DNA from: Minisyncoccia bacterium
GTDB lineage: Bacteria; Patescibacteriota; Minisyncoccia; Phycocordibacterales; GWA1-40-21
Assembly (NCBI GenBank): GCA_049287185.1
Contig: JBAQFI010000014.1
Coordinates: 1 to 56,956, forward strand
Reading direction: 5' to 3'
DNA: 56,956 bases
The translations under genes were made by a program, and so were the position numbers. The notes beneath the pieces were generated by a model. That model saw only the letters and a list, made by a program, of their open reading frames with translations, had not been told where the DNA came from and made no database searches. Below, piece after piece: positions 4,644 through 32,181 of this stretch (the stretch's first letter is position 1; each line of letters starts with the position of its first letter).

Positions 4644-4702
4644 AGGAAAACCAGTAGGACTATTTATGAAAGTAGGAATCTGTCACAACCATTTTAAAAA
4701 TA

Positions 4703-4853
4703 AGTAGGACCGCTTCGCGTATCTTTTCTTCCTTCGTTTTGTCGTCACAAAACTCAGTCGAAACGCGGTCTCGAATTTCTCGCTGGTGCTCGAAATATAC
4801 TCGACCGTTCTCATCCTACTCGCAAGACACGTAGGTGTCTTGCTTGGGCGCAC
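4703..4853 (-). repeat. tRNA-3'-end-linked structured element, type C body (Lys copy)
   Basis: On the minus strand, GTGCGCCCA is the complement of the tRNA-Lys acceptor 3' strand. A hairpin (AGCAAGACAC/GTGTCTTGCG) follows, then AGTAGGA, the complement of the T-stem 3' strand. Next comes a 47 nt core nearly identical to 11893-11939. The element ends GCGGTCCTACT, echoing tRNA ...TTCCTACT. Confidence 0.8.
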
Positions 4854-4887
4854 AAAATAAAAAACCACTTTCGTTATTTAAAATTGT

Positions 4888-5005
4888 GGTCACAGGTTTT
4901 TTCTTGCTAGAAAAACTCGCGACCCCGCCTCGCGCCGTCGCGCTCCGGCTCGCACACTGCAAACCAAAACCACCAGGTGTCTGGTGGTTTTTAATATTTG
5001 CAGTG
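4888..5005 (-). repeat. tRNA-3'-end-linked structured element, type A body (Lys copy)
   Basis: Directly 3' of tRNA-Lys there is a long hairpin plus T-run, followed by the conserved blocks GGCGGGGTCGCGAG, a hairpin and GTGACC. The same blocks occur in the His, Val and Ser copies. Confidence 0.7.
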
Positions 5006-11829: not shown

Positions 11830-11985
11830 CACTTGGACCGCTTCGCTTATCTTCCCAGCGCTCGGTTTCGCCGTCGCTTCACCGAGCTGGGACGCGGTCT
11901 CGAATTTCTCGCTGGTACTCGAAATATACTCGACCGTTCGATTCCTAACTTTTGATATACTCATATCAAAAGTTAAGTGGGGGGA
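11830..11985 (-). repeat. tRNA-3'-end-linked structured element, type C body, matched to tRNA-Arg(GCG)
   Basis: On the minus strand: TCCCCCCACTT, a hairpin (AACTTTTGATAT/ATATCAAAAGTT) and AGGAATCGAAC. Joined together these are the reverse complement of the last roughly 22 nt of the tRNA at 20407-20478. The 47 nt core matches 4764-4810 with one mismatch. The element ends GGTCCAAGTG, echoing tRNA ...TTCCAAGTG. Confidence 0.8.
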
Positions 11986-12037
11986 CATTATAAAAATCGG
12001 CTTTTCTTAAAAGAAAGCCGATTTTTATAATGTCCCC
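11981..12037. terminator. 24 bp perfect palindrome (bidirectional terminator-like) containing a displaced tRNA 3'-end remnant
   Basis: GGGGACATTATAAAAATCGGCTTT ... AAAGCCGATTTTTATAATGTCCCC. The arm at 12031-12040 reads GTGGGGACA on the minus strand, resembling the tRNA-Arg(GCG) 3' end GTGGGGGGACA. Confidence 0.7.
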
Positions 12038-12180
12038 ACAACAAGAAATTATTATAACCATTTTGAGTGATAGAAATTATATAGAAAGCTTATATGAGAA
12101 AGTCAGATATATAAGAGAGATGAGTGTGAATTAAATTACTATCTCCACTTAGTATATTAAATTTCTTAAAAACATAAAAA

Positions 12181-15194: not shown

Positions 15195-15221
15195 ATTTTT
15201 TATTATACTTTTTTAGGTGGT

Positions 15222-15446: not shown

Positions 15447-15472
15447 AATGTTTTTTATTAAATTATTAAAAC

Positions 15473-16081
15473 CTATTTACGTTTTACCTTACCTAATGAC
15501 CAAATAATAAAATCTAATGCTTTAATATCAGATATTTTTGATTCACTTACATTAAACCTTTTTCTAAACTTTAAAATTACTTTTTTAACCTTACTATCCT
15601 TTAATAAATTTGAGTACATCTGCTTTAAATATTCATATATTTCTATGCAGGATTTGACCTTTTCTCTCTTAGTTTCGCCAGTTCTTTTTTTGTGAATTAC
15701 ATCTGAGACTTCTGCATCAAAAATAGGATTATTATTATCCAGTGTGTGTAATAGTTTAGTGGCGAAGCTAAATTGAATTGTATTTTGACCTTTCCGGTTG
15801 GGAAATTTATATAACTCTAATAAAATAGACCCTAAATCGTTTTTCTTTTTAGTTAATAATTTAAAGTAAAAATCTTTTATATCGTCACCTAACCCAGCGT
15901 TATCTAATTTATAATAGGACCTGAAAACAAATTGGAATAATGTATTGTTTTTAATGTTATCTTTTTCGTGTTCATTTTTTAAAAATAAATAAATGCAAAT
16001 ACTCTCACAATTTATATTGGATAATATTTTGTCCTGATTGCCTAGGATCTCCTTTATTATTCTTTCTAATTCTTGAAGCAT
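15473..16081 (-). CDS. hypothetical protein (first gene of the minus-strand island cassette)
   Basis: 202 aa soluble Lys-rich ORF. No family is recognised. Confidence 0.45.
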   Translation of the reverse strand: MLQELERIIKEILGNQDKILSNINCESICIYLFLKNEHEKDNIKNNTLFQFVFRSYYKLDNAGLGDDIKDFYFKLLTKKKNDLGSILLELYKFPNRKGQNTIQFSFATKLLHTLDNNNPIFDAEVSDVIHKKRTGETKREKVKSCIEIYEYLKQMYSNLLKDSKVKKVILKFRKRFNVSESKISDIKALDFIIWSLGKVKRK

Positions 16082-16326
16082 TTGGTCGTATCTAAACGAC
16101 CTAGTAGTAAGGCACGAAAAATCCTCACACTAGGAAGGTTTTTAAGCCTATGTATCAGTTTCCCAATACAACGCACGATACGCCCTAATATGAGGGTTTT
16201 CTGTATCGTGCGATTATTGACCGTGCCACCAGCAAAAGCTAATGGGTTAGGTCCTACGGAATATTCAGTTGTCCATTAATATTAACATTTACAGGGCTTT
16301 CTGCAATAAATAAGTTACCAACTGCA

Positions 16327-17232
16327 TTGAGTTGTATGAGAATTAGTGAAATACTATATATTATGGTTAAAATTAGCAAGAAACAAAAAGGTGAGATAAA
16401 ACCGTATTTGGCGAATTTGGGTCTTATATTGGCGGTATACAATAAACTACTACAAACCCATAAAAATATAATTAATGATTTCGATAAAAAATACAGATTT
16501 TTGAGCTCTAAAAAAATGAGGAAGGAGAAACCTTATATATGGACACCAGATGGAAATATTATTATAGACACTAAATTTTTAAATAAACTCGACGACAAAA
16601 GTAGAAAAGACCTACTATTTATTAAAGATGAAATGACTAAAGACTTTAAAGAGAAAATATTACCTTTAGTTAATTTACCACTACATTTTCTTCCTTATTA
16701 TTGGAACTATATATTGTACAGAGATATAGACGCGCCAAAGAAAAACTTTTCTATAAATTTTCATCCAATTGATCCTAAATATGATTTAATAAAAAAAATG
16801 GACAGAGGCACACAGTATATTACTCTTAATATATATAAACCTCTCTCTACTAATGAAAAGAAAAAAGCACTTAGTCTAGTTGAGAGTATGGGAAAAAAGG
16901 CTTTTCCAAAATATATAAAAGATAAACTTAAGTTTGTTAATGATATAACTCGTGATCTTAGATTATATAATGATGCATCTGAAAGAAAACGTTCAAAAAC
17001 AACGATAGAATATACAGACTACTTAAAATTTTTAAAAAAAGAGGTGGAAAAAGGACGTTGCTCTGAAACTTCATTTAAACATACAGTATCTTTAAATCCC
17101 CATGATATTGATATAAAAAAAGAAAAAAGTATAACAAGTAAAGAGATTGGCAAGAAATTTAATTTAAAGGAAGCAAATGTAAAAAAGATTATAGAAAGAT
17201 ATAACAAAAAAATGTCACTTTATATCAACTAG
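16327..17232 (+). CDS. hypothetical Lys-rich protein (island)
   Basis: 301 aa ORF divergent from the RT cassette. No family is recognised, and the true start may be the internal Met of MVKISKKQKGE. Confidence 0.45.
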   Translation: MSCMRISEILYIMVKISKKQKGEIKPYLANLGLILAVYNKLLQTHKNIINDFDKKYRFLSSKKMRKEKPYIWTPDGNIIIDTKFLNKLDDKSRKDLLFIKDEMTKDFKEKILPLVNLPLHFLPYYWNYILYRDIDAPKKNFSINFHPIDPKYDLIKKMDRGTQYITLNIYKPLSTNEKKKALSLVESMGKKAFPKYIKDKLKFVNDITRDLRLYNDASERKRSKTTIEYTDYLKFLKKEVEKGRCSETSFKHTVSLNPHDIDIKKEKSITSKEIGKKFNLKEANVKKIIERYNKKMSLYIN

Positions 17233-17506
17233 TACCGTGACACTTTTTTAACAAGAGGATGTCACGATGATTTAAATACTAGTTTTATATTGAGCCCAGA
17301 GTCAAAGTGATTCTGGGTGATGCTTTTTAACAAAGCCCCAACATCACCTTTGGGGCTTTATTATGGATTCAAAAGAAGAAATAAAAAAAGAAGAAGAGAT
17401 AATAAGCGATGCGGCCGAATCGCTCGCTTCAATTTTTGTTTCTTTATTTGACCAACAATTTGAGAGAAAAAACAAAGACTCCCAAATCACTAATTAATTT
17501 ACAAAT

Positions 17507-17719
17507 ATGTTAAAAAAAAATATAACTAAGAATGGGTGTTTATCAGATACTGAGTGGATGCTTTGGTTCGATATGGATGATGCTGCGAGAGAAATATTAC
17601 GGGGTAGAACGATAGATTCTAAGAGAGTTCATGAGGATTCAAATTTTACTATTTTGTATGATTGTAAAACCAGCGATTTTACCCTCACATATACTCTTAA
17701 AGGGAAACACGCTAATTAG
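17507..17719 (+). CDS. hypothetical small protein (island)
   Basis: 70 aa ORF. No family is recognised. Confidence 0.35.
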   Translation: MLKKNITKNGCLSDTEWMLWFDMDDAAREILRGRTIDSKRVHEDSNFTILYDCKTSDFTLTYTLKGKHAN

Positions 17720-17787
17720 CAGGTTAATTTAGTTTTTAGTTTTTTAAACCCTGGGGTATTAGAAACTGAAAACTAATAAAAAAGTAT

Positions 17788-18861
17788 ATGGAAATTGCAA
17801 AAATAATCGAAGGAATGACAAAAGACCTAGAAAGTAAGACTAACTCGCTTGTCTCTGTTGAACAGATATTGAAGCACGACTTTGGTCCTGAATTATGGAC
17901 TGTGGCTGAATTAATACCCCAAGAATCAATTACTGCCATTACGGGAGCACCAAAATCATTCAAAACATGGCTTGTGCTAGATATTGCCAAATGTATCGCT
18001 AAGGGCACGGATTTCTTAGGAAAATTTAAGACTAGTCAGGGTCGAGTACTTATTATCGATAGAGATAATAATTTACGCCACATTCAAAAACGGCTCAAAA
18101 TGCTCGGATTTGAAAAGGAAGAAATTCTATACCATGTAGGAGAGGGTGAGTTTCAGATTGATAAGGATAAAGACTTCCAGGAGTTATTAAAGACAGTAAG
18201 TGAACAAAAAATTAGTTTGGTGATATTAGATTCTCTCGTGCGGATTCATTCAGGAGATGAGAATGAGTCACGATACATTAACAAGCTAATGACTGCCTTT
18301 AGAAAAGTAACAACTTTGGGTGCCACAATTATTTTTCTACATCATAACCGTAAGGAAAGTCTAAATACACAAAGCACAACCAATAGCGTACGTGGTTCGT
18401 CAGATATTTTTGCCGGTCTTGATTGTCTTCTACAAGTAACCAAGCCAGAAAAGGATTCTCTGTACATCACCCAATCGAAACTAAGAACCGGAGAAGAAAT
18501 GGAACCTTTTAAGGTTCAGATAAATAAAACTGAAGAGTCTATGGAGCTTGTATATGCTGGTAAAAGTGATTTTGGAAGTAAGGACACCTATGAAGTAAAG
18601 ATTATTATTGCTGAGCTATTAGAAGACAAAAAAGAAATGACACGTGAAGAAATAATTAAAGAATTTTCTGAACAATACAAGCCAGTAATAATTAATCTTT
18701 CACTAAAAGAACTTGAATTGTCAGAGAAAATTATTAAAAAGATAGGACCTCATAATAAACATTCTTATGTATTAAACGCAAATTCTACACTAAAAAGTGA
18801 AAAGATTGAAGTTAAAGTGCATAACCCTGTTGATATGAATTTATTAAAAAAGGATAATTAA
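17788..18861 (+). CDS. RecA-superfamily ATPase (RepA / AAA_25-like) typical of integrative and plasmid replication modules
   Basis: Walker A ITGAPKSFKTW, Walker B LVILDSL, sensor region FLHHNRK. Confidence 0.7.
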   Translation: MEIAKIIEGMTKDLESKTNSLVSVEQILKHDFGPELWTVAELIPQESITAITGAPKSFKTWLVLDIAKCIAKGTDFLGKFKTSQGRVLIIDRDNNLRHIQKRLKMLGFEKEEILYHVGEGEFQIDKDKDFQELLKTVSEQKISLVILDSLVRIHSGDENESRYINKLMTAFRKVTTLGATIIFLHHNRKESLNTQSTTNSVRGSSDIFAGLDCLLQVTKPEKDSLYITQSKLRTGEEMEPFKVQINKTEESMELVYAGKSDFGSKDTYEVKIIIAELLEDKKEMTREEIIKEFSEQYKPVIINLSLKELELSEKIIKKIGPHNKHSYVLNANSTLKSEKIEVKVHNPVDMNLLKKDN

Positions 18862-18870
18862 AATTAAATT

Positions 18871-20511
18871 ATGAATCAAAATAAAGTTGCAGTTATATAT
18901 TGTAGAGTTTCCACGGACGAACAAGCCAAGGAAGGTTTGTCTATTGAATCGCAGGAACTTACTTGTCGAAGAAAAGCTGAAGAGGAGGGATATTCCGTTA
19001 TTGAAGTAATAAAAGATGAAGGTAAGAGTGGAAAAAATATTAATCGAGAGGGAATGAAAAATATTTTAAGGTTAGTGAATGAGAAAAAAATAAATGCTAT
19101 CTATTTGGTAAATACCGACAGGCTTTCCAGAAATGTAGCCGACCATATATATCTTACTGACCTCTTTAGAAAGAATAAAGTGTTGTTAAGATCAATAAAT
19201 CAACCAACATTAGATAGTTCAGCCACTTCCATAACTATGGATTTAATGATGGCAACAATGAACCAGTTTCAAAGATTGAATACAGCAGAAAAAGTTAAAT
19301 CGACAATGCATGAAAAAGCTAAAGCTGGTTATTACCCCAGTAAGGCTCCTGTCGGCTACAAGAATGTCCAAGACTTAAATAAGTCGGAAAGATTTGCTAG
19401 AAAAACAATTATTATTGATGAAAAAGCAGCGGTCTTTGTTAGGGAAATTTTTAGACTGTATGCCACTGGCGAACACAATGCGGTTGAAGTCAGCGATATT
19501 GTCTACGATAAAGGATTTAGGAGTAGAGGTGGAAAGAAAGTATCGGACTCCAAAATCTATATGATGTTAAAAAATCGATTCTATATTGGAGAGATAAACT
19601 GGGGAGAAATACATATTCCTAAAGCTAAGCATGAGCCCTTAATTGAAAGAGTGGTATTTGATCAAGTTCAAAGTGTTTTGAATTCCCACAATAAGCATTC
19701 TTGTCGGCGGCGAAAGTACAAATGGTTGCTTAGTGGATTCCTTAGGTGCCATAAACATAATTCTAGATATACGGCTGAATGGCATTTAAACAAAAAGATT
19801 GCTTACTATCACTGTACGGTTAATGGTTGCGGTAAATTCTCCGAACAGGTAAAACTTGAAAATGCTATCGCTGAAAAGTTTAAGGACCTTGAGTTCAGCC
19901 CAGATTTTATTGAATTAGTTATTAGTAAGGCAAAAAACATCTTCTATGAACGAAGAGAGGTGTATGAAAGCAAGAGACAGGGTTTGATTAATCAAAAAAG
20001 TGCCTTCGAAGCCAAATTAAAGGTAGCGGAAACCAAATTACTATCAGGCACCTTAAAAGACGAGGACTTCAAAAGGATCCGAGAGGAAATTAAAAAAGAA
20101 ATTGACCTAATTGATAATAGGATAGTTGAAGTTCAGAAGGGTAAGGAGATAAATGTTGATATGACAAGGGAAATAATTGGGCTAACTAAGAATATTTTTG
20201 AAACATATCAAAAGGCTTTACCTGAGCTAAAAAGGTTATTTCTGGGTTTCTTTTGGGAAAGGTTTGAAGTATCTGAAGGTATTATAATAAATTCCATTCC
20301 CTCTATATTATTTAGCCAATTAATCAAACTTGAGAAGGCATATCAAAAAAGCCAAAATACTAATAAACCCAGTGATTTTGCTAATGTTATAAGTTCTACT
20401 GACTTGTCCCCCCACTTGGAATCGAACCAAGATTTTGAGTTCCGCAAACTCATGTCCTATCCATTGAACGATGAGGAGATGAACGGGAAGACTATAGCAC
20501 ACTTTTTTTAA
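18871..20511 (+). CDS. large serine recombinase (integrase)
   Basis: Resolvase catalytic motif VIYCRVSTDEQ, recombinase domain, Cys-rich zinc ribbon (CHKHN...YYHCTVNGC), coiled-coil region. The last roughly 35 codons run antisense through the tRNA at 20407-20478. Confidence 0.9.
   Translation: MNQNKVAVIYCRVSTDEQAKEGLSIESQELTCRRKAEEEGYSVIEVIKDEGKSGKNINREGMKNILRLVNEKKINAIYLVNTDRLSRNVADHIYLTDLFRKNKVLLRSINQPTLDSSATSITMDLMMATMNQFQRLNTAEKVKSTMHEKAKAGYYPSKAPVGYKNVQDLNKSERFARKTIIIDEKAAVFVREIFRLYATGEHNAVEVSDIVYDKGFRSRGGKKVSDSKIYMMLKNRFYIGEINWGEIHIPKAKHEPLIERVVFDQVQSVLNSHNKHSCRRRKYKWLLSGFLRCHKHNSRYTAEWHLNKKIAYYHCTVNGCGKFSEQVKLENAIAEKFKDLEFSPDFIELVISKAKNIFYERREVYESKRQGLINQKSAFEAKLKVAETKLLSGTLKDEDFKRIREEIKKEIDLIDNRIVEVQKGKEINVDMTREIIGLTKNIFETYQKALPELKRLFLGFFWERFEVSEGIIINSIPSILFSQLIKLEKAYQKSQNTNKPSDFANVISSTDLSPHLESNQDFEFRKLMSYPLNDEEMNGKTIAHFF
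20407..20478 (-). tRNA. tRNA-Arg (anticodon GCG), atypical C1-G72 acceptor
   Basis: Manual cloverleaf: CTCCTCA acceptor paired with TGGGGGG (two G-U pairs), D arm GTTC/GGAC, anticodon stem TGAGT/ACTCA with loop TTGCGGA, T arm CTTGGTTCGATTCCAAG, discriminator A. No CCA is encoded. Confidence 0.65.
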
Positions 20512-21140: not shown

Positions 21141-21324
21141 AACGATAAAATAACGCGAAAGCGTTATTTTTGTTGTGGAGAAGGAGTAATGTGTTTGAAC
21201 ACATTACGTCGAGATTCGAAAGGAATTTTGATATTTTGTTAGTAAACAAAATCAAAATTCCGGGGTCGAGGAAAAAATATGTGACGACATATTTTTGAGG
21301 TGACCGAACAGCCTTCTCCGCAAC
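21141..21324 (+). repeat. tRNA-3'-end-linked structured element (Ser copy, type A-like)
   Basis: The order is terminator hairpin, TGTGGAGAAGG (complement of the acceptor 3' strand), hairpin AGTAATGTGT/ACACATTACGT, then CGAGATTCGAA (21210-21220), the exact complement of T-loop plus stem. The body carries CGGGGTCGAG and GTGACC. A 14 nt perfect direct repeat GCCTTCTCCGCAAC lies at 21130-21143 and 21311-21324. Confidence 0.85.
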
Positions 21325-25914: not shown

Positions 25915-26235
25915 ATGATTTTTAAAAATAATAAACAAAATTTATATCAAATTTTAACCACCCATAAAACTGGTTATAAGAAAATTTTTGACAATTGGTT
26001 GATTGTTATTTTTACAAGCATTATATTAAATATTGCCATAATAATTTTAGCAATTTATTTTTGGACAATAATTAATAATCAAGAAATTACGATCCCAAGA
26101 CCTGAAACACTCGGTAATTTTGAAATGATTGATAAAAACCTCTTAGAAAAAATCATCAATCATTTTGATGAACAAGTAAAAATTAGTGATAATTGGGTAA
26201 AAGCGAGTCATTTATTGATTGACCCATCTCTCTGA
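25915..26235 (+). CDS. small bitopic membrane protein in the pilus operon
   Basis: One TM helix (WLIVIFTSIILNIAIIILAIYFW). Coupled to the preceding gene. Confidence 0.45.
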   Translation: MIFKNNKQNLYQILTTHKTGYKKIFDNWLIVIFTSIILNIAIIILAIYFWTIINNQEITIPRPETLGNFEMIDKNLLEKIINHFDEQVKISDNWVKASHLLIDPSL

Positions 26236-26257
26236 TAATGTTATATTTTTAGCGCTC

Positions 26258-26329
26258 GCCCTCGTAGCTTAATGGATAAAGCAGAGCTCTTCTAAGGCTT
26301 TGATGTGGGTTCGATTCCTGCCGAGGGCG
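26258..26329 (+). tRNA. tRNA-Arg (anticodon UCU)
   Basis: GCCCTCG acceptor, anticodon loop CTTCTAA, T arm GTGGGTTCGATTCCTGC. No CCA is encoded. Confidence 0.9.
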
Positions 26330-26562
26330 CAAAAATTAAAACCGCTAAAAGCGGTTTTAATTTGCCTGCCCTCGAGAAGCCGTGGAGACGGCTTCGTGCA
26401 GGAATCGAAGCCCCATTGAGTGTATTTTGTGAGTCCTTCGAAACAAAATACCCAATGGGGGTACTGAAGCTGTAAGTTTCGATAAATGTACTCATGGCCC
26501 TGCCGTCTTAATTCTTTGAGTGACGACGAGTAAAATATCTGTGACAGATTCCTGTCGAGCCC
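26330..26562 (+). repeat. tRNA-3'-end-linked structured element (Arg-UCU copy, type B body)
   Basis: The order is terminator hairpin, GCCCTCGA, hairpin GAAGCCGT/ACGGCTTC, then GCAGGAATCGAA, the exact complement of TTCGATTCCTGC. The body has the 8 bp helix CCCCATTG (26411-26418) / CAATGGGG (26453-26460). A degenerate terminal copy GATTCCTGTCGAGCCC follows. Confidence 0.8.
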
Positions 26563-26873
26563 TATTTTTTCTTCATCATTACCACCATAATTATCGTTCC
26601 AATCGTCCAAAGTGGTAAAACATCAACAAGAGGAATTAACTCCCCAAGAGAACTGACTGATATAGTCGCCAATTGTTTAGGATGATGGGTCAGAGGTATT
26701 TTTAATAGACTAAACCAAATCCAGAAAATAATTGTTGTAATCAGAGTGATTATGGGCACAACATATGTTCCTAATATAAAGGTCGTTAAAATTAATTGTG
26801 TCAGGTCAATTATCATTGCAAAAGCAATCATCAAAAATGCAGTCAGGTTTGTTATTTTTTGTGTATTTTCCAT
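26562..26873 (-). CDS. small polytopic membrane protein
   Basis: 103 aa with three hydrophobic helices. Confidence 0.5.
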   Translation of the reverse strand: MENTQKITNLTAFLMIAFAMIIDLTQLILTTFILGTYVVPIITLITTIIFWIWFSLLKIPLTHHPKQLATISVSSLGELIPLVDVLPLWTIGTIIMVVMMKKK

Positions 26874-26954
26874 AAAATAGATTGTAGCAATAAGTAAAAA
26901 GGAAGGGAAGCTTTCTTGATTATTGAAGTAATTTAAGCTATATTTTTCCTATAT

Positions 26955-27027
26955 GGGCGGTTAGCTCAGTTGGTAGAGCGCAACATTGACGTTGTTGATG
27001 TCAGAGGTTCGAATCCTCTACCGCCCA
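26955..27027 (+). tRNA. tRNA-Val (anticodon GAC)
   Basis: GGGCGGT acceptor, GCTCAGTTGGTAGAGC D arm, anticodon loop TTGACGT, T arm AGAGGTTCGAATCCTCT. No CCA is encoded. Confidence 0.9.
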
Positions 27028-27275
27028 CAAAAAATACGAAGTAGTTTTTTTGTGGGCGGTAAGTAAGGTCTGGAGAGACCTTACGTGAGGATTCGAAGTC
27101 CGATTGAGTATTTTTTCTAGCTGACTAGCGAAGAAAAAATCCAGAGGGGTTGAATTGCGAATACTTAGAGTAATTCAAAGACGGAGGCTGACGAGCCGAG
27201 TCGGGGTCGCGTAAATTTTCAATAGAAAATTATATGTGACCTGACCGTGTAACGGTCGAAATTCCTCTACCTACG
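27028..27275 (+). repeat. tRNA-3'-end-linked structured element (Val copy, chimeric type B/A body)
   Basis: TGTGGGCGGTA (27051-27061) is the exact complement of TACCGCCCACA. The hairpin AGTAAGGTCT/AGACCTTACGT follows. GAGGATTCGAA (27087-27097) is the exact complement of TTCGAATCCTC. The body has AGACGGAGG, GAGTCGGGGTCGCG and GTGACC, and a degenerate terminal copy AATTCCTCTACCTACG follows. Confidence 0.85.
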
Positions 27276-27332
27276 TACTGATAATTTTTCTTATACTATA
27301 TACATAATACCCTATACTAAATACTAATTTTC

Positions 27333-28112
27333 ATGCTAGTCTATAATCACACTATGAAAATCCCAATCCTCTATGAAGACAAAGATATAGCTATCATCAA
27401 CAAACCAGCCGGTTTAATGGTGCACCCTGATGGAAAATCTAAACCCGCCCGACCGAATGATTCTGGTCATTCGGGCGGGGAAAAAACTTTAGTGGATTGG
27501 GTATTACAGAAATTTCCCGCTACTAAAAAAGTGGGGGAGCCAATAACTTTAACAGATGGAACAGTGATTATTCGTCCTGGTATTGTTCATCGCTTAGATA
27601 AAGAAACTTCCGGAGTCATGATTGTAGCCAAGACTAAAGCTGGTTTTGAATTTTATAAAGATAAATTTCAAAATCGCGAGATGAAAAAAGTTTATCATGC
27701 TTTTGTTTGGGGAGAAGTAAAAGAAGATGATGGTAAAATAAACCGTCCAATCGGCAGAAGTAGTACTGATTTTCGTCTTTATTCCGCTCAGCGTGGAGCT
27801 CGTGGTGAGATTCGTGAAGCCTTAACCGAGTATAATGTCTTATTCCGTGGCAAGGGTTATTCATTTGTTTCTGCTATGCCTAGAACCGGACGAACACACC
27901 AGATTCGTGTCCATTTTAAGGCTGTAAACCATCCGATTATTGGCGATGCTCTTTATGCTCCAAAATACAGAAAAGCCCTCGGATTCAAACGAGTTGCCCT
28001 ACATTCATACGCTATAAATTTTATTGATCGCCAAGGTAAGGAGATTACAGTGAAGGCACCTGATCCAGAAGACTTTAAAATAGCGGCCAAGAAAATCGGC
28101 CTAATTAAGTAG
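27333..28112 (+). CDS. RluA-family pseudouridine synthase
   Basis: HRLDKETSGVMIV catalytic motif and GRTHQIR motif. The probable true start is the Met at 27354 (MKIPILYED). Confidence 0.85.
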   Translation: MLVYNHTMKIPILYEDKDIAIINKPAGLMVHPDGKSKPARPNDSGHSGGEKTLVDWVLQKFPATKKVGEPITLTDGTVIIRPGIVHRLDKETSGVMIVAKTKAGFEFYKDKFQNREMKKVYHAFVWGEVKEDDGKINRPIGRSSTDFRLYSAQRGARGEIREALTEYNVLFRGKGYSFVSAMPRTGRTHQIRVHFKAVNHPIIGDALYAPKYRKALGFKRVALHSYAINFIDRQGKEITVKAPDPEDFKIAAKKIGLIK

Positions 28113-28159
28113 ATATAACGTTTGCTTTTATTAGAAACCTGTGCTAAATTGTCCACATT

Positions 28160-28555
28160 ATGGAAATCAAGATGTCACCAGTAAATATTGAAGAAAGAAA
28201 GAAAATGGATATTCGCGCAGGCGATACTATTTGTGTTTGGCAAAAAATTATTGAAGGAGATAAGTCTCGTTTGCAGGCTTTTGAAGGAATTGTTTTAGCT
28301 CGTAAACATGGTACTGAAGCTGGTGGAACTTTCACCGTTCGTAAAGTTATTGATGGTATTGGTGTAGAAAAGATTTTCCCATTGTATTCTCCTAATGTTG
28401 ATAAAATTGACATCATCCGCCGTTCAAAAGTTCGTCGTGCAAAACTTTATTACATTCGTGACAAAGCTACCAAAGAAATCAAACGTCACATGCGCAAGAT
28501 TATGGGTACCAACGAAGTTAAGGAAGATAAAGTTGCTGATAAGAAAGCTGAATAA
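28160..28555 (+). CDS. rplS: 50S ribosomal protein L19
   Basis: [25 protein letters not shown]...[10 protein letters not shown] pattern. Confidence 0.9.
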
Positions 28556-28560
28556 AATTA

Positions 28561-28587
28561 AAAAAACCGCTCATCGCGGTTTTTTTG
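28561..28587 (+). terminator. intrinsic terminator
   Basis: AAAAAACCGCTCATCGCGGTTTTTTT. Confidence 0.75.
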
Positions 28588-28651
28588 TTTAATACTAATT
28601 GGTATACGCTATATCCTTGAGCACTAATTATATATATGATAAAATAAGGTA

Positions 28652-29314
28652 ATGGGAAAGAGGGGAACAAAGCCAAAGAATAAAGTAAAAATTAAGTGGT
28701 CCGGTAATTTTGCTTATGCAATGGGACTGATTGCTACTGATGGTAATTTATCTCCAGATGGACGCCATATTAATTTTACTTCTAAGGATATCGAACAGAT
28801 AGCAAATTTTATGAAGGCACTAGAAATAGAATGCAATATTGGAAAAAAATCAAATGGCCACGTTAAACATAAAAAATACTTTGTAATTCAGTTTGGAGAC
28901 GTTAATTTCTATTCGTTTCTCAATTCGATTGGACTAAAACCTAATAAGTCTAAAACTATCGGTAGTATTAAACTGCCAAGCAAATATTTTTTTGATTTCT
29001 TGAGGGGATGCTTTGATGGGGATGGTTGTTTCTATTCATATTGGGATAAACGCTGGAAATCTAGTTTTATGTTTTACACTGAATTCGTATCGGCCAGTCA
29101 AAAACACATTTTATGGCTACAAGATGAAATATTTAGAAGGATAAATATTAAGGGACATATAACAAAGGGCGGAAATAATTCTTGTTATCAATTAAAATAT
29201 GCCAAATCTGATTCTCTAAAATTATTAAAAAAAATTTATTATAAAGGTGATTTAATCTGTCTAGATAGGAAGAAGTTGAAAATTAGAAAAATATTAGGTA
29301 ATATTGCCAAGTAG
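28652..29314 (+). CDS. LAGLIDADG-family homing endonuclease (two-motif, free-standing)
   Basis: Two LAGLIDADG-like motifs, YAMGLIATDGNL and FLRGCFDGDGCF, about 100 aa apart. Confidence 0.8.
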   Translation: MGKRGTKPKNKVKIKWSGNFAYAMGLIATDGNLSPDGRHINFTSKDIEQIANFMKALEIECNIGKKSNGHVKHKKYFVIQFGDVNFYSFLNSIGLKPNKSKTIGSIKLPSKYFFDFLRGCFDGDGCFYSYWDKRWKSSFMFYTEFVSASQKHILWLQDEIFRRINIKGHITKGGNNSCYQLKYAKSDSLKLLKKIYYKGDLICLDRKKLKIRKILGNIAK

Positions 29315-29335
29315 CTCGGTTTAATAGGAGTTAAT

Positions 29336-29419
29336 GCACGGGTGTCGAAACTGGTAGACGATCTGCCTTGAGGTGGCAGCGCCCGCAAGGGCATGGAGGT
29401 TCAAGTCCTCTCCCGTGCA
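29336..29419 (+). tRNA. tRNA-Leu (anticodon GAG)
   Basis: GCACGGG acceptor, anticodon stem-loop CTGCC TTGAGGT GGCAG, long variable arm, T arm GGAGGTTCAAGTCCTCT. No CCA is encoded. Confidence 0.9.
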
Positions 29420-29588
29420 CAAAAAATACCCTAAGAAGGGTATTTTTTCTGCGCGGAGCAAGCCATGGGGATGGCTTGCGAGAGAGGACTTGAAGCCTGT
29501 TTGAGTATTTTATCGAGCTTTCTTAAGCGAAGAAAAAATCCAAACAGGATACTGGTCATGTAATGACCAAGATTCCTCTCCCGTGCAA
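29420..29588 (+). repeat. tRNA-3'-end-linked structured element (Leu copy, type B body)
   Basis: The order is terminator hairpin, TGCGCGGAG, hairpin CAAGCCAT/ATGGCTTG, then GAGAGGACTTGAA, the exact complement of TTCAAGTCCTCTC. The body has the helix CCTGTTTG (29496-29503) / CAAACAGG (29541-29548). A 14 nt perfect direct repeat TCCTCTCCCGTGCA lies at 29406-29419 and 29574-29587. Confidence 0.85.
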
Positions 29589-29723
29589 CACTATTTCATC
29601 TTACCCCTTTACAAACAAACAATACTATGCTAGATTATACATGTAACCGCCAGAAGCGGTTTTGTTCTTTAAGTGGCTTAAATACTAAGCTAAAATCAAA
29701 ATAAATCAAAAAAGGGGGAAGAC

Positions 29724-29963
29724 ATGCTAAGAATGCAATGTACCAAGAAACAATGCGAAAAGTGCATCAGTTGCACGTGTTCGGTGCGAGATTTAGTTCG
29801 CGAAAAAACTGGATACGAGGGTAAGATTAGTCCGAGGAATTGGACTAGGCTTATAAGGCTGGGAATCTTTGATGCTTTGGTGTCAGAAAAAAAAGGTGAC
29901 CCGATTGTTGGGGACACCTTGAAAAAAATCGCCAATAAAGTATTGGCCGGTCAGTCACTTTAA
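29724..29963 (+). CDS. small Cys-rich hypothetical protein
   Basis: AAGGGGG RBS 5 nt upstream, N-terminal CxxxxCxxCxxCxC pattern. Preferred over the overlapping antisense ORF 29696-29935. Confidence 0.5.
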   Translation: MLRMQCTKKQCEKCISCTCSVRDLVREKTGYEGKISPRNWTRLIRLGIFDALVSEKKGDPIVGDTLKKIANKVLAGQSL

Positions 29964-30033
29964 TTTATTTTGACTAGCGAGGAGCGGATGGAAGAGTACT
30001 CTCTTACATCACGTCCGAGCGAAGTCAAACTAT
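29964..30033. repeat. 70 nt repeat, copy 1 of an inverted pair
   Basis: The reverse complement of 29964-30033 matches 43587-43657 with a single mismatch by manual alignment. Confidence 0.9.
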
Positions 30034-30064
30034 GAGGTTTACGCTCTTAATTTTTGATTAACAA

Positions 30065-30095
30065 AAGTCCACATCTAAAGATGCGGACTTTTTCT
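30065..30095 (+). terminator. intrinsic terminator
   Basis: AAGTCCACATC/GATGCGGACTT hairpin followed by TTTT. Confidence 0.55.
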
Positions 30096-30126
30096 TTTGT
30101 ATTTTTTCTGATGTATAATTTGTGAC

Positions 30127-30660
30127 ATGTATACTCGAAAAGGTGATGATGGTAAAACCACTTTATTTCATTGTGATCAGCGCTTATCAAAAAGCTCTAT
30201 TATTGCTGAGGCTCTAGGCACGCTTGATGAACTAAATTCTTTTTTAGGAATTTGTCGTACCAAAGCCAGTGGTGAAGAAAATAACGATTTAGCAAAACAA
30301 ATTTTACTGGTGCAAAATGATTTATTTATTATTCAGGCTAGTTTGGCTGGTGCTGATAAACATATTAATCTAGAGAGGGTAGAGTGGTTAGAAAATATAA
30401 TTGGAGGAATTGAAAAAGAAATTCCACCCATTAAAAATTTTATTATTCCAGGTAGTGATGAGGTAACCGCACATATAGATTATGCTCGAACACTAGCTCG
30501 CAAAGCTGAAAGGAGAGCGGTCGCAGTTTTCGATGAAGGAAAAGTTCAAGTGGAAAAAAATACTTTAATTTATTTAAATCGTTTATCCTCATTTTTGTTT
30601 GCTTTAGGTAGACAAAAGGCCTATAAGTCTGGTATAAATGAGGAGCATCCAAATTACTAG
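30127..30660 (+). CDS. PduO-type ATP:cob(I)alamin adenosyltransferase family protein
   Basis: N-terminal YTRKGDDGKTTL motif, size 177 aa. Confidence 0.8.
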   Translation: MYTRKGDDGKTTLFHCDQRLSKSSIIAEALGTLDELNSFLGICRTKASGEENNDLAKQILLVQNDLFIIQASLAGADKHINLERVEWLENIIGGIEKEIPPIKNFIIPGSDEVTAHIDYARTLARKAERRAVAVFDEGKVQVEKNTLIYLNRLSSFLFALGRQKAYKSGINEEHPNY

Positions 30661-30692
30661 GATGCAATATCTGTTAATCTAGCAGAACTAAT

Positions 30693-30764
30693 GGTGCCTA
30701 TAGTTTAGTGGTAAAACTCCGGTTTGTGGAACCGGTATCGAGAGTTCGATTCTCTCTAGGCACC
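30693..30764 (+). tRNA. tRNA-His (anticodon GUG) with encoded G-1
   Basis: G-1 at 30693 pairs with C73. Anticodon stem-loop CCGGT TTGTGGA ACCGG, T arm GAGAGTTCGATTCTCTC. No CCA is encoded. Confidence 0.9.
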
Positions 30765-30963
30765 CAAAAATAACGAGCTAAACACAATAGTGTTTAGCGA
30801 TTATATTTTTGTAGTACCTAGAGAGAATCGAAAGACGGAGGCCGCGAAGCCAGTCGAACGTAGTGAGACTGTGGCCGAGTCGGGGTCGAGAGTACTTAGG
30901 CTTTTAGAAATTCATATTTTTAAAAGACTTAGTAACTCGTGACCGATTCTCTCTAGGCACCCA
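30765..30963 (+). repeat. tRNA-3'-end-linked structured element (His copy 1, type A body, unsplit guide)
   Basis: Terminator hairpin first. GTACCTAGAGAGAATCGAA (30814-30832) is the complement of TTCGATTCTCTCTAGGCAC with one mismatch. The body has AGACGGAGG, GAGTCGGGGTCGAG and GTGACC. The element ends in a perfect 20 nt copy of the tRNA 3' end (30944-30963). Confidence 0.85.
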
Positions 30964-31197
30964 TGAAAAAAGCGGCGTAAGCCGTTTTTGTCATGGGTGC
31001 CTAAGCAAACAAAAGTATTTGTTTGCGTGGAGAATCGAAAGACGGAGCCAATGATTTTCAGTAGAAAATCATGTGAGTCGGGGTCGCGACTTTTTCTGAA
31101 CGACGGTGAAGAAAAAAGCCGTGACCGATTCTCTCGTTTTCCTAATAAAATTTAATTGGGACTGCTCCTGTAATGGTCGATTCTCTCTAGGCACCCA
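30964..31197 (+). repeat. tRNA-3'-end-linked structured element (His copy 2 plus a short third stub)
   Basis: The order is terminator hairpin, TGGGTGCCTA (30994-31003), hairpin AGCAAACAAA/TTTGTTTGCGT, GGAGAATCGAA. The body has AGACGGAG, GAGTCGGGGTCGCG and GTGACCGATTCTCTCG. A stub of about 55 nt follows, ending in a third perfect 20 nt copy (31178-31197). Confidence 0.85.
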
Positions 31198-31260
31198 CAT
31201 TTCAAAAACTTGTAATCCGAAATCAATCCCTTCTCTTATATTTTTTGCTATAATATTTCT

Positions 31261-32181
31261 ATGCTAGCTTTATTATCTTCAATTTTTGGAGCAGTCGGTT
31301 CATTAGCCCTATTTATTTTTAGTATATTATCCTTTGACAGACTAATCCGAAAACATACCAGTAGTAAAATAAAGGAATTATTAACATCATTAACTTCAAA
31401 TCCTGTTAAGGGTCTAATTTTTGGTTTTATTACTTCAGCTATAATACAATCCAGCTCGGCTCTAACTACCTTACTTGCGTCGCTAGCTGATGCTGGAATG
31501 ATTTCTATTTATAACAGTCTGGGTGTTATTTTCGGAGCCAACATTGGTACTACTATCACTGCTCAATTAATAGCCTTCAATTTTGCTAGCATCTCACCTT
31601 TAATAATTATTATTGGTGTTATATTTTTACTTTGGGGTGGACGATTTCGTAATTATGGAAAGCCAATAATTTATTTTGGTCTGTTATTTTTTTCAATTTA
31701 TTTAATCTCCTATTTTGTTTCCAAAGTAGACAGTGTTTTCTTTATAGATTACATTGCTTTAATTTCTAATTTATACATTGCTATTTTTGTTGGTATTATT
31801 GCTTCAACTCTATCTCAATCAAGCAGTGTCGTAACCGGAATAGTGCTCGTTATGGCGGGCATGGGGCATTTCGATTTGATGCAGTCTGTCGGTTTGATTC
31901 TGGGAGCAAACATTGGTACTACCACAACAGTTTTAATTGCTTCCTTGGTAATGGGTAAAGAAGCAAAAAAAGTTGCTGTTGCTCAATTTCTCTTTAACTT
32001 TTTAGGCGTTATTATTGTTTTACCTATTATTAATATTTTTTATTATGTTGTCGATTGGCTTGACGGTGACATCGTCCATCAGGTCGCAAATATTCATTTA
32101 CTATTTAATGTTTTTTGTGCCGCGGTCTTTATAATTGCGATTAAACCTTTTGCCTGGTTAGTCAATAGAATTGTAAAATAA
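31261..32181 (+). CDS. Na/Pi cotransporter family protein (short, no PhoU domain)
   Basis: Duplicated QSSSA(L/V)T...GANIGTT motifs in a polytopic membrane protein. Confidence 0.8.
   Translation: MLALLSSIFGAVGSLALFIFSILSFDRLIRKHTSSKIKELLTSLTSNPVKGLIFGFITSAIIQSSSALTTLLASLADAGMISIYNSLGVIFGANIGTTITAQLIAFNFASISPLIIIIGVIFLLWGGRFRNYGKPIIYFGLLFFSIYLISYFVSKVDSVFFIDYIALISNLYIAIFVGIIASTLSQSSSVVTGIVLVMAGMGHFDLMQSVGLILGANIGTTTTVLIASLVMGKEAKKVAVAQFLFNFLGVIIVLPIINIFYYVVDWLDGDIVHQVANIHLLFNVFCAAVFIIAIKPFAWLVNRIVK

Follow-up and report, generated by a model that had tools for sequence, protein, structure and literature searches.

Downstream of the tRNA-Leu(GAG) gene in the DNA analysed here (the window, a stretch of 56,956 nt from a Minisyncoccia bacterium) lies a short folded sequence whose arms copy and complement the 3' end of the tRNA. 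Such a sequence raises the question of whether its fold is maintained by selection, and if so, what kind of element carries it. It is not alone. All seven of the tRNA genes in the window (7/7) have on their 3' side at least one small, non-coding, strongly folded element with arms complementary to the 3' end of that tRNA. The elements and their parts are listed in Table 1.

Table 1 Positions of the tRNA-linked elements and their parts in the window.
Feature	Position	Strand	Basis or remark
tRNA-Leu(GAG) gene	29336..29420	+	ARAGORN and Rfam tRNA; 3' end (T loop to discriminator) copied and complemented by the element arms
Leu: terminator-like hairpin (intrinsic type), AAAAAAUACCC-UAAG-AAGGGUAUUUUUU, between tRNA and element	29421..29449	+	Sequence, MFE fold
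Leu: whole tRNA-complementary arm	29450..29494	+	Sequence, fold
Leu: anti-acceptor segment, TGCGCGG	29450-29456	+	
Leu: junction hairpin, AGCAAGCCAT-GGGG-ATGGCTTGCG	29457-29480	+	Seventh window copy with such a hairpin, beyond the six listed originally
Leu: anti-T-stem/T-loop segment, AGAGAGGACTTGAA	29481-29494	+	
Leu: type B body	29495..29549	+	Covariation, fold
Leu: basal helix of type B body, CCUGUUUG/CAAACAGG	29496-29503 / 29541-29548	+	
Leu: 3' module, UACU-(GGUCAU-GUA-AUGACC)-AA	29550..29570	+	Cross-genome comparison, fold
Leu: second, downstream sense copy of tRNA 3' end, GATTCCTCTCCCGTGCA	29571..29587	+	Sequence, fold
Arg(UCU): array 3' of tRNA	26331..26563	+	Sequence, type B alignment; contains a terminator, arm and type B body
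Arg(UCU): hairpin in arm, GAAGCCGT/ACGGCTTC	26354-26373	+	
Arg(UCU): type B helix, CCCCATTG / CAATGGGG	26411-26418 / 26453-26460	+	
Arg(UCU): degenerate sense copy, after a 3' hairpin	about 26498-26509	+	
Arg(UCU): 5'-truncated type A remnant	about 26515-26548	+	
Arg(UCU): second degenerate sense copy	26549-26563	+	
Val: composite element 3' of tRNA	27029..27271	+	Sequence, type A model (93.4 bits); contains a terminator
Val: hairpin in arm	about 27061-27085	+	
Val: type B body	about 27091-27150	+	
Val: type A core	27180-27240	+	Preceded by hairpin UUGAAUUGC..GUAAUUCAA; followed by 3' hairpin and short sense copy ATTCCTCTACC
His: tandem array 3' of tRNA	30766..31197	+	Sequence, type A model
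His: unit 1	30766-30963	+	Type A core 30834-30943
His: unit 2	30964-31135	+	Type A core 31041-31125; junction hairpin AGCAAACAAA/TTTGTTTGCGT (about 31005-31029)
His: remnant and final full sense copy	31136-31197	+	
Ser(UGA): element 3' of tRNA	21141..21322	+	Terminator, arm, long hairpin replacing P2, P3 portion of type A core (GGGGTCG...GTGACC), sense copy CCTTCTCCGCA
Ser(UGA): hairpin in arm, AGTAATGTGT/ACACATTACGT	21183-21207	+	
Lys: array 3' of tRNA	4671..5004	-	Sequence, type A model (77 bits)
Lys: type A core	about 4889-4949	-	Compensated GCC/GGC variant of the GAC/GUC helix
Lys: hairpin in arm of type B unit, AGCAAGACAC/GTGTCTTGCG	4844-4821	-	
Lys: type B body	4751-4810	-	
Lys: short 5'-truncated type A remnant and sense copy	4671-4690	-	
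Arg(GCG): type B element	11830..12046	-	Own tRNA at 20406-20478; partial sense copy GTGGGGACA, terminator, arm, B body, sense copy GGTCCAAGTG
Arg(GCG): hairpin in arm, AACTTTTGATAT/ATATCAAAAGTT	11947-11974	-	

On the tRNA strand, a unit has a regular layout: tRNA 3' end, terminator, complementary arm, body, and a second copy of the tRNA 3' end. It is about 100–250 nt in size and has no coding capacity. The first part runs from T-loop position 54–56 to just beyond the discriminator, and is followed by an intrinsic-terminator hairpin. The arm is the reverse complement of the tRNA 3' end, usually with a hairpin of 9–10 bp at the acceptor/T-stem junction. The body is made of interchangeable modules, which are of type A, type B and several more types. 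Type A is a three-way junction, AAAGAC-GGAG-(P2)-CGAGUC-GGG-GUCG-(P3 with a bulged A)-UGUGAC, while type B is a hairpin that is bent and contains tandem G.A pairs; where type B or another body is used, it stands at the same position and the type A core is absent. The second tRNA 3' end, often truncated, is directly 3' of the body. The arm has two alternative partners. With the live tRNA 3' end it forms a long hairpin that has the terminator as its cap, and with the downstream copy it forms helix P1. Either way, the inserted segment has both its boundaries brought together at the conserved junction of the body.

The direct repeat formed by the two tRNA ends starts at C56 in 36 of 54 cases, and directly 3' of GTGAC in 41 of 54. 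Its reach beyond the tRNA end is variable, continuing through the terminator for 30–56 nt in three loci (L034, L038 and L112), and it is shorter than 12 nt in 41 of 95 copies. Of 41 comparisons, 26 show a closer match of the arm to the live tRNA than to the downstream copy and 9 show the reverse, which fits an insert that carries its own hairpin together with a displaced copy that decays. Priming by a mature tRNA at a PBS-like site was rejected, because the arm has no complement of CCA and matches the genomic trailer instead.

In the MFE fold of the Leu copy, the terminator hairpin is the loop of a large inverted repeat consisting of the tRNA 3' end and the complementary arm. Folded alone (–61 kcal/mol, z = –7.4), the element pairs its downstream sense copy with the arm, and is predicted to adopt a cloverleaf-like shape in which the junction hairpin accompanies an acceptor-like stem of 6 bp and a T-like stem of 7 bp. 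Beyond the basal helix, the type B body contains an AGY/C internal loop, an A/U helix, the tandem G.A motif and a small apical hairpin. The hairpin of the 3' module (6 bp, GUA triloop) keeps its position and shape in B-type elements of many genomes.

The original observation was that the type B helices of the Leu and Arg-UCU copies differ at three positions, all of them compensated, and this was taken to reflect a selected fold. Both helices (Leu CCTGTTTG/CAAACAGG, Arg-UCU CCCCATTG/CAATGGGG) are where they were placed, and the three differences are as described (T-A to C-G, G-C to C-G and T-A to A-T). An alignment enlarged to 14 type B bodies, from the window and from genome and metagenome loci, shows that the helices also covary above background. 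The three variable pairs of the basal helix occur as CG9/UA4/UG1, GC9/GU2/AU1 and AU6/UA4/CG2; 89.6% of cells are paired, against 35–59% when the partner is slid, and the covariation score was matched by 0 of 500 shuffles.

All six hairpins previously reported to split the tRNA-complementary segment (in the Val, Ser, Arg-UCU, His-2, Lys and Arg-GCG copies) are present. The gap between the anti-acceptor and anti-T segments was scored for 26 tRNAs in which both segments match strictly, and it is always at the acceptor/T-stem junction. It measures 0 nt in 9 of these tRNAs and 17–29 nt (mode 24–25) in 16, where each insert folds into a stem of 9–10 bp closed by a loop of about 4 nt, with no sequence relationship among the stems. 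For the type A core, the alignment of 144 copies was fitted to the model, and covariation was counted on this fitted alignment: 95.7% of cells are paired, against 71% in shuffled and 31–44% in slid controls, with 699 double changes, and the GAC/GUC helix has the pairs AU108/GC13/CG9/UA4. Covariation is likewise seen in P1. We conclude that structure is under selection: across many genomes, helices persist while their sequences are replaced, in the type A copies (144), the type B bodies (14) and the junction hairpins (16).

Small and conserved, the type A core has variable peripheral helices. Its invariant junction strands are AAAGAC-GGAG, CGAGUC-GGG and UGUGAC, and P3 has a bulged A and a conserved G.U pair. 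The stretch GAGUCGGGGUCG is invariant. The segment CUGACGAG of the Val copy is the variable P2 loop, missing from most copies. Of 142 type A copies, 136 keep the G.U pair. Read on the opposite strand it would become a C.A mismatch, which assigns the fold, and the selection on it, to the tRNA-sense strand. The earlier wording, that the fold acts in RNA or single-stranded DNA, has the right level of caution; sequence alone does not separate the two. Two local likenesses are judged to be coincidental: that of type B to loop B of the hairpin ribozyme, where the Arg-UCU copy has a plain helix, and that of the P2 loop to the ACGR loops of guanidine-II. In both cases the loops vary and there is no Rfam support.

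The architecture recurs in about 100 genomes. A tRNA on the same strand is found upstream in 70 of 108 pattern matches, at a modal distance of 67–68 nt and with 16 amino-acid types represented. The family is widespread in Patescibacteria (CPR bacteria), across many CPR classes, and occurs in a few Elusimicrobia. Elements are missing from about 40 of the 177 tRNAs in the surveyed loci, and for tRNA-Trp their presence differs between genomes. Some tRNA-specific architectures are common to different genera, namely a Lys type at 45–49 nt and a Trp type at 83–84 nt, and similar ones are retained in related genomes (Lys type, Trp type; L044 and L110). In L143, a CPR locus chosen independently, the single tRNA carries an element. 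The type A pattern had 0 matches in the 2.9 million viral contigs of IMG/VR, the Val element had no blastn match in GenBank phages or PLSDB plasmids, and full-text literature searches, including one with the core sequence itself, found no description.

The units turn over rapidly. The sister strain L147 shares 98.6% identity with the window along the 3214 nt that end with tRNA-Arg-UCU at position 26331. Beyond this point it has a different terminator, an A-like core and an arm with a different junction hairpin, as well as a B body that is 96.7% identical to the Lys-linked body of the window. This comparison covers the Arg-UCU locus only, the contigs at other tRNA loci ending inside or beside elements. 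Modules are shuffled: one B body (96.7% identical) is joined to arms for tRNA-Lys, for tRNA-Arg-GCG and, in the sister strain, for tRNA-Arg-UCU. Similarly, a near-identical element is 3' of tRNA-Lys in one locus (L003) and of tRNA-Arg in another (L015), with a repeat that matches each tRNA. Tandem arrays are found at His, Lys, L013, L123 and L126, nested copies at Val, L062 and L101, and insertions within duplicated 5' fragments of tRNA-Ile, -Asn and -Ser.

The Val copy had been described as a chimera, arising by recombination between two subtypes. Its 5' part is indeed of type B and precedes a type A part, but it does not appear to be a local recombinant. The same order (B body, UUGAAnnGC...GCnnUUCAA hairpin, A core) recurs in L062 and L101, and the unit of hairpin plus A core stands alone inside duplicated tRNA 5' fragments in L078, L092 and L087. 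From its arrangement, the Val copy is therefore better explained by nesting: a type A unit would have entered a type B unit just 5' of the 3' hairpin of the latter.

The genes around the elements were searched for a linked protein, by clustering 702 ORFs within 2.5 kb of 100 loci. No constant neighbour emerged: the clusters are syntenic housekeeping genes (miaA-like, L19, ParB, RluA). Among the 100 loci, a LAGLIDADG ORF occurs in six and a large serine recombinase in three (L001, L087 and L092). There is no tnpB/iscB-type ORF near any of the 144 copies, no integrase remnant adjoins the elements, and Pfam found no Y1/HUH transposase among about 40 of the roughly 50 ORFs in the 57 kb window of the genome. 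A promoter scan gave no consistent promoter upstream of the elements.

On the basis of these observations, we propose, with a probability of about 0.55, that the tRNA genes of Patescibacteria are colonised by a large modular family of insertion elements, small, non-coding, strand-specific and structured, to which the copies belong. The inserted segment would start at T-loop position 55/56 or, in some classes, immediately behind the discriminator, and would extend through the body. It would bring or generate a replacement tRNA 3' end and terminator, leaving the gene intact, while the original tRNA 3' end is pushed downstream and decays. New units could enter the same site, to build up stacked arrays, and could also enter the D loops of tRNA copies and other units. 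Propagation would be through a folded single-stranded intermediate, RNA being more likely than DNA, in which the tRNA-complementary arm supplies homology to the target; the conserved junction would be the substrate of a putative trans-acting enzyme, or would be acted on by the RNA itself.

That the units are mobile is the most likely interpretation of the strain difference at Arg-UCU, the tandem arrays, the nested copies and the insertions in tRNA 5' fragments. Against it, there is no consistently linked transposase, integrase or reverse transcriptase, and no two copies in the window are identical, which means that no very recent transposition is documented. In addition, the strain differences could stem from recombination or gene conversion among resident copies instead of transposition.

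The occupation of all seven tRNAs in the window and of the one in L143, and the similar tRNA-specific architectures of related genomes, would equally be expected if the units had a host function. A unit might be a host-beneficial RNA gene, transcribed by read-through or from its own start to give a minihelix that resembles an acceptor/T stem and matches the neighbouring tRNA, the junction hairpin occupying the place from which a real tRNA extends its D and anticodon arms. This minihelix might be processed or recognised by RNase P, RNase Z or the CCA-adding enzyme; or the arm might pair with the tRNA precursor, with the body as a common sensor or protein handle that regulates tRNA maturation or level. 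Conservation over many CPR classes, strong purifying selection on structure, the cloverleaf-like fold of the Leu element alone, the Lys and Trp architectures common to different genera and the lack of a linked mobility gene all agree with such a role. However, many units (those with a repeat below 12 nt) have a truncated or degenerate version of the sense copy on which the acceptor-like stem depends, a strain with 98.6% identity has wholly different units at the same tRNA, and a terminator stands between tRNA and arm. Arrays, nested copies, 5'-truncated remnants and copies in tRNA 5' fragments are unexpected for a partner gene, about 40 of the 177 tRNAs have no element, and we consider a host role unlikely. 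The ribozyme originally suggested, here in the form of an intron-like or self-processing one in the T loop, is less likely still. Here tRNA positions 1–55 of a read-through transcript would pair with the downstream copy around a self-contained fold, and the three-way junction could cleave and ligate (excision, circularisation, reverse insertion), with the arm as internal guide sequence. The geometry is suitable, in that both boundaries converge on invariant nucleotides, the arm is complementary to a flanking 'exon', and a small, highly conserved core with variable helices has a bulged A and a conserved G.U in P3. Nevertheless, nothing self-cleaving or self-splicing in Rfam 15 matches, not even with E relaxed to 10; splicing is unneeded and read-through disfavoured, since a complete tRNA with a terminator stands upstream; the many downstream copies with no acceptor strand would yield a defective spliced product; and type B and other bodies occupy the same position with no type A core.

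The units might finally be DNA-level scars of site-specific integration, either attL/attR remnants or CIME-like derivatives of integrase islands, with hairpins that are terminators or recombinase palindromes and no selected fold. Integrative elements that target tRNAs classically duplicate the tRNA 3' end, accrete in tandem and bring a replacement 3' end with terminator, and serine recombinases are found in the island at tRNA-Arg-GCG in the window and near elements in the three loci noted above. Double-stranded protein sites, however, do not explain the extensive compensation seen in several helices, conserved G.U pairs and strict strand asymmetry. The cores are conserved over CPR classes with never an integrase remnant adjacent, and they are absent from viral contigs and from phage and plasmid records. 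Because the helices covary, this explanation is largely refuted, and is given very little weight.

At gathering threshold, the 4227 models of Rfam 15, which include self-cleaving ribozymes, group I/II introns, omega-RNA/IS605-orfB, HEARO, tmRNA and Y RNA, matched only tRNAs and LOOT in the whole window; at E up to 10, positions 26200–31300 gave only chance-level miRNA/sRNA matches over the elements. The invariant strands differ from those of a hammerhead ribozyme (CUGANGA and GAAA strands, UH site). Group I introns, in bacterial tRNA genes, and group IIC introns, after terminator hairpins, are alike in having a 5' segment complementary to the flanking exon, a conserved core with variable helices, insert ends that meet at the core, and residence in tRNA genes or just 3' of intrinsic terminators. 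However, the present units are far too small and lack the defining core elements. A group I intron requires a core of at least about 200 nt, P3–P9 and the G-site in P7, whereas these units have 2–3 hairpins and follow a complete tRNA with its terminator. Their guide is complementary to the 3' exon and its copy, not to the 5' exon. Size and fold are also incompatible with the six domains of a group II (IIC) intron, with its domain V, GUGYG and usually an RT ORF, and no Rfam match was obtained.

Integrative elements that target tRNA genes share with the units the use of the tRNA 3' part, including the T-loop sublocation, the replacement 3' end, the displaced direct repeat of the tRNA 3' end that flanks the insert, and tandem stacking. 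The units differ in being only 100–250 nt long, in having no integrase or remnant, in their added inverted copy of the tRNA end, in their covarying single-strand folds, and in a repeat of 7 to more than 50 nt. Derivation of att or CIME sites from an integrase-bearing element is not indicated, as there is no conserved neighbour ORF and no viral, phage or plasmid match. MITEs, REP/REPIN, IS200/IS605 PATEs, and Rickettsia palindromic and Correia elements are similarly short, non-coding, multi-copy, hairpin-bearing and intergenic, near terminators. These small repeat families have fixed terminal sequences and a fixed short target, whereas here the arms are rewritten for each tRNA, the targets are tRNA loops and ends, and the conserved part is an internal multi-helix junction. 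For MITEs in particular, fixed terminal inverted repeats are missing, the arms being the complement and the copy of each host tRNA and differing between copies, and the target duplication has a fixed start but a length of about 7 to more than 50 nt. Among these, the IS200/IS605 (PATE) and REP/RAYT types are strand-specific and use single-stranded hairpins with short guide pairings to choose the site. Strand-specific hairpins are present here, and would look the same in RNA and in single-stranded DNA.

Guide-bearing transposon RNAs (TnpB/IscB omega-RNA, IS110 bridge RNA) and target-homology retroelements (R2, with a 5' ribozyme and rRNA-derived ends, SINEs and retrozymes) resemble the units in several respects. 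The units have a conserved scaffold with 16–20 nt identical to the flanking target immediately behind it, a structured RNA that contains sequence matching both target strands, 5'-truncated copies whose 3' junction is intact, and a repeat of variable length, as in target-primed reverse transcription. As for the order scaffold then flank-derived guide of omega-RNAs, here 16–21 nt of tRNA sequence come right after GUGAC. There is, however, no nearby tnpB or iscB ORF and no Rfam scaffold match, and if a guide of the TnpB type were directed at a tRNA gene with no interruption, it would be self-targeting. In contrast to these systems, no nuclease, recombinase or RT gene is associated, and the guide-like segments pair together. 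The constant RT adjacency of retron/UG-Abi RT ncRNAs is missing. We know of no SINE-like system in bacteria. Finally, in tmRNA, YrlA (Y-RNA-like) and viral 3' TLS, the 5' and 3' ends form an acceptor-like stem on a T-stem-like helix, with a branch at the site of the D/anticodon arm. Acceptor-like and T-stem-like helices form in the folds of the Leu, Ser and His-1 copies, but the stem sequence, instead of having a fixed identity, is copied from the adjacent tRNA; a T loop is lacking, and many copies have a truncated 3' strand.

We tentatively suggest, as a possibility going well beyond the insertion elements proposed above, that these are a previously unrecognised class of RNA-structured mobile element in CPR bacteria and a few Elusimicrobia, homing to tRNA genes by base pairing. 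Such an element would carry both a copy and a complement of its target, its ends would meet at the three-way junction, insertion and excision would occur there by its own catalysis or by a putative trans-acting enzyme (for example a reverse transcriptase or HUH nuclease), and its arms would be re-templated for each tRNA. On this view, bacteria would have an analogue of guide-programmed or SINE-like retro-insertion in which the essential target gene stays intact, and a new target-programmed mobile (or tRNA-partner) RNA could be set beside group II introns, omega-RNAs and bridge RNAs. There would be a hidden layer of small folded elements on most tRNA genes of a whole bacterial radiation, reading tRNA sequence by pairing and swappable within less than 2% genome divergence. 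This would also explain why short-read CPR assemblies break at tRNA genes, and would provide a compact natural scaffold of 60–110 nt with exchangeable 20-nt arms. Even with a host role, the units would be an unrecognised, radiation-wide partner RNA of tRNA genes.

It is worth adding that the Arg-GCG copy, which is far from its tRNA, is not an orphan that transposed away: an island of 8.4 kb integrated into tRNA-Arg-GCG, which carries the large serine recombinase, has split the pair. The sole reverse transcriptase of the window (12181–14316, UG19 class) is at the edge of this island. A retron-style pairing of this enzyme with the Arg-GCG element was rejected, because their adjacency is that of the island end and the homologues P0002 and P0008 (CPR) have no downstream element. 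The family of this reverse transcriptase is widespread outside CPR.

The window carries seven tRNA genes, and its gene content is what one expects of a reduced genome in the Patescibacteria (CPR). Behind each of the tRNA genes for Ser, Arg-UCU, Val, Leu, His and Lys there are one to three units, non-coding folded segments consisting of a terminator, an arm that is the reverse complement of the tRNA 3' end, a body, and a further copy of that 3' end. At first sight tRNA-Arg-GCG has none, but an Arg-GCG-specific unit is located 8.4 kb away. The sequence GTGGGG(G)GACA flanks the Arg-GCG island (see table) on each side, and the island has thus integrated into the 3' end of this tRNA gene and pushed the unit away, so that all seven tRNAs carry one. 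The LOOT RNA of the island sits between an ORF of unknown function and a divergent ORF, and four island ORFs have no Pfam match. Homologues of the UG19 reverse transcriptase in two other CPR genomes are also in islands adjoining tRNA genes, at tRNA-Gln in L143 and, with a tyrosine integrase, at tRNA-Asp in L145 (L numbers denote comparison loci from other genomes or metagenomes).

Coordinates of features in the window and, where named, in comparison loci
Feature	Position	Strand	Detail
Arg-GCG-specific unit	11830-12046	-	
Island in tRNA-Arg(GCG) 3' end	12047-20405		about 8.4 kb
UG19-class reverse transcriptase, island	12181-14316		711 aa; PADLOC E = 2e-165
LOOT RNA (Rfam RF03000), inside island	16135-16253	-	74.9 bits
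Divergent ORF beside LOOT RNA	16327-17232		
AAA_25 protein, island	17788-18861		
Large serine recombinase, island	18871-20511		abuts tRNA-Arg(GCG)
LAGLIDADG-type ORF	28652-29314	+	free-standing
tRNA-Leu(GAG) gene	29336-29420		
Terminator-like hairpin 3' of tRNA-Leu	29421-29449		
Leu junction hairpin	29457-29480		AGCAAGCCAT-GGGG-ATGGCTTGCG
Leu body	29495-29549		55 nt
Leu 3' hairpin	29550-29570		6 bp, GUA triloop
Second tRNA-Leu 3'-end copy	29571-29587		GATTCCTCTCCCGTGCA
Cys-rich small ORF region	29725-30105	+	ORF of about 79 aa, from 29725
5'-truncated type A remnant	about 26515-26548	+	
5'-truncated type A remnant	about 4681-4690	-	
5'-truncated type A remnant	about 31136-31178	+	
5'-fragment insertion, L078	2290-2450		
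5'-fragment insertion, L092	6480-6700	-	
5'-fragment insertion, L087	1780-1990	-	
Elusimicrobia type A core, L002	6749-6846		49 bits
Elusimicrobia type A core, L054	2871-2969		49 bits

In the Leu element, the terminator-like hairpin is directly followed by TGCGCGG, which is complementary to the 3' strand of the acceptor, and the junction hairpin by AGAGAGGACTTGAA, complementary to the T loop and the 3' strand of the T stem. Folded alone (-61 kcal/mol, z = -7.4), the element shows a stem resembling an acceptor stem, the junction hairpin, and a T-like stem within which both body and 3' hairpin lie.

There are two main body types. The type A core, a three-way junction with helices P2 and P3, has the form GACGGAG-(hairpin)-GAGTCGGGGTCG-(hairpin)-GTGAC; Val, His-1, His-2 and Lys-1 carry it, and Ser has part of it. 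Its 5' flank is the complement of the tRNA, terminating in GGAATCGAAA, and its 3' flank repeats the tRNA from C56 on. A pattern scan of one genome per species listed at least 120 loci, of which about 100 are genuine and the remainder are chance matches in high-GC actinobacteria. Among the matches listed, the genuine loci are nearly all from Patescibacteria of many classes, plus two Elusimicrobia, and a same-strand tRNA, which can be of any kind, lies upstream in 70 of 108 hits (modal spacing 67-68 nt). The Elusimicrobia MAG cores are well formed; ARAGORN called no tRNA in L002. For type B, a bent hairpin, a metagenome scan with a Leu/Val subfamily motif found about 10 more distinct copies in the same context. 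Behind other tRNAs this position is taken by further body types, and in L143, a CPR locus chosen independently, a B-like unit follows the sole tRNA. In L003, L015, L123 and L134 a tiny GCGAAGC hairpin with a T run replaces the usual terminator between tRNA and arm.

The original prediction was that selection acts on a single-strand fold. Its observations are confirmed: all six junction hairpins are found in the window, and the Leu and Arg-UCU type B helices lie exactly where it placed them, their three differing positions all being compensated in the sequence. A type A covariance model built from 15 equal-length seeds recovered 144 copies from 100 sources. P2 and P3 are 95.7% paired, a figure inflated because the alignment was fitted to the model, compared to 71% for column shuffles and 31-44% for slid partners. 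Both the slid controls and the count of different pair types speak against an artefact. In the same model-fitted alignment there are 699 double-sided changes, with compensation at 21 of the 22 pairs; the short GAC/GUC helix occurs as AU (108), GC (13), CG (9) and UA (4), and a G.U pair is retained in 136 of 142 copies. P1, formed from the two flanks, is 65% paired (shuffles, 49.5%), being diluted by copies with a local hairpin instead. In type B, the basal helix has three variable pairs, which covary among 14 bodies; the inner A/U helix is invariant and therefore uninformative on covariation. When both half-arms are matched strictly, they are separated by 0 nt in 9 cases and by 17-29 nt in 16 (mode 24-25), without exception at the acceptor/T boundary, and each insert folds into a stem of 9-10 bp with a loop of about 4 nt, the stem sequences being unlike. 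Together these results support the predicted selection on structure, and the selected fold is on the tRNA-sense strand.

The original interpretation is partly supported: for the Val copy, a nested insertion within a modular family is preferred to a chimera formed by recombination. A "hairpin + A core" is likewise nested inside B units in L062 and L101.

We propose that the units are a family of non-coding, structured insertion elements that home to tRNA genes, with a probability of about 0.55. The main rival, an RNA of the host that acts as partner to the tRNA, is unlikely. Strains differ in their units. L147, from another sample, matches the window at 98.6% identity across 3214 nt as far as position 26331, one base beyond tRNA-Arg-UCU, after which it is unrelated, with another terminator, an A-like core and an Arg-UCU-specific arm whose junction hairpin differs from that in the window; its B body is 96.7% identical to the one linked to tRNA-Lys in the window. 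A near-identical unit is at tRNA-Lys in L003 and tRNA-Arg in L015, in each case with a flanking repeat that matches the respective tRNA. About 40 of the 177 tRNAs in the loci lack a unit, and one tRNA type may be filled or empty depending on the genome.

Tandem arrays are present at His and Lys and in L013, L123 and L126. Duplicated 5' fragments of tRNA-Ile, tRNA-Asn and tRNA-Ser, which extend to the D loop and lie 19-52 nt ahead of the intact genes, also contain type A cores preceded by a UUGAAAUGC..GCAUUUCAA hairpin, and each junction is without two target bases. All that is left in the truncated remnants is the 3' half of P3 (...GUGAC) together with the exact junction to the tRNA 3'-end copy. 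The edge of the direct repeat is sharp next to the body and ragged at the far end, and in some loci the repeat includes the terminator. In 26 of 41 cases the arm is a better match to the live tRNA than to the downstream copy; in 9 it is a worse one. The units do not code for protein, and among the ORFs near type A loci none was a constant neighbour. On the basis of this turnover, tRNA switching, arrays, nesting, remnants, repeat boundaries, arm pairing and absence of a linked gene, an insertion element fits far better than either a fixed partner gene or the scar of an integrase.

With C56 of the live tRNA and the last body base as its limits, the inserted segment would comprise a replacement tRNA 3' end, the terminator, the arm complementary to the tRNA, and the body. 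On its own, this segment would fold with the replacement end paired to the arm and the terminator as a loop, and its first and last nucleotides would then meet at the invariant junction. A read-through fold would pair tRNA positions 1-55 with the downstream copy, the insert protruding from the T loop. This would be the topology expected for cutting and joining at a conserved junction, in RNA or single-stranded DNA; we favour RNA as the probable intermediate because of the conserved G.U pairs and tandem G.A motifs. Variable repeat length and 5'-truncated copies give a weak hint of retro-type synthesis from the 3' end. Matching of the arm and junction hairpin to a new tRNA could be by templating at insertion, or by recombination among resident copies in the shared T-loop complement.

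The units resemble tRNA-targeting integrative elements in their replacement 3' end, displaced repeat and tandem accretion; REP, PATE and Rickettsia palindromic elements in being small structured repeats; and intron guide sequences and guide-bearing transposon RNAs in the logic of the arm. They lack at least one of the defining features tested for these families, probably also in the case of REP and PATE. There was no match in the Rfam 15 families or in phage and plasmid records, and no description in the literature, though the papers covered are an incomplete set. We therefore rate the family, within that coverage, as outside any described kind.

The LAGLIDADG-type ORF is 22 nt upstream of tRNA-Leu, and in L001, L015, L111, L079 and L090 related ORFs are found at most a few hundred nt from type A cores; a link to homing at tRNA clusters is possible but unproven. 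Short-read contigs in the Logan assemblies of two samples (L121, L122, L147, L148, L150 and L151), which belong to the window organism and a strain 96-98.6% identical to it, stop in or beside tRNA-linked elements, which evidently break assemblies. Finally, on the 3' side of the Cys-rich ORF come a stretch of higher GC content (GACUAGCGAGGAGCGGAUGG...CGUCCGAGCGAAGUC) and a terminator, and all three lie upstream of a cobalamin adenosyltransferase gene.
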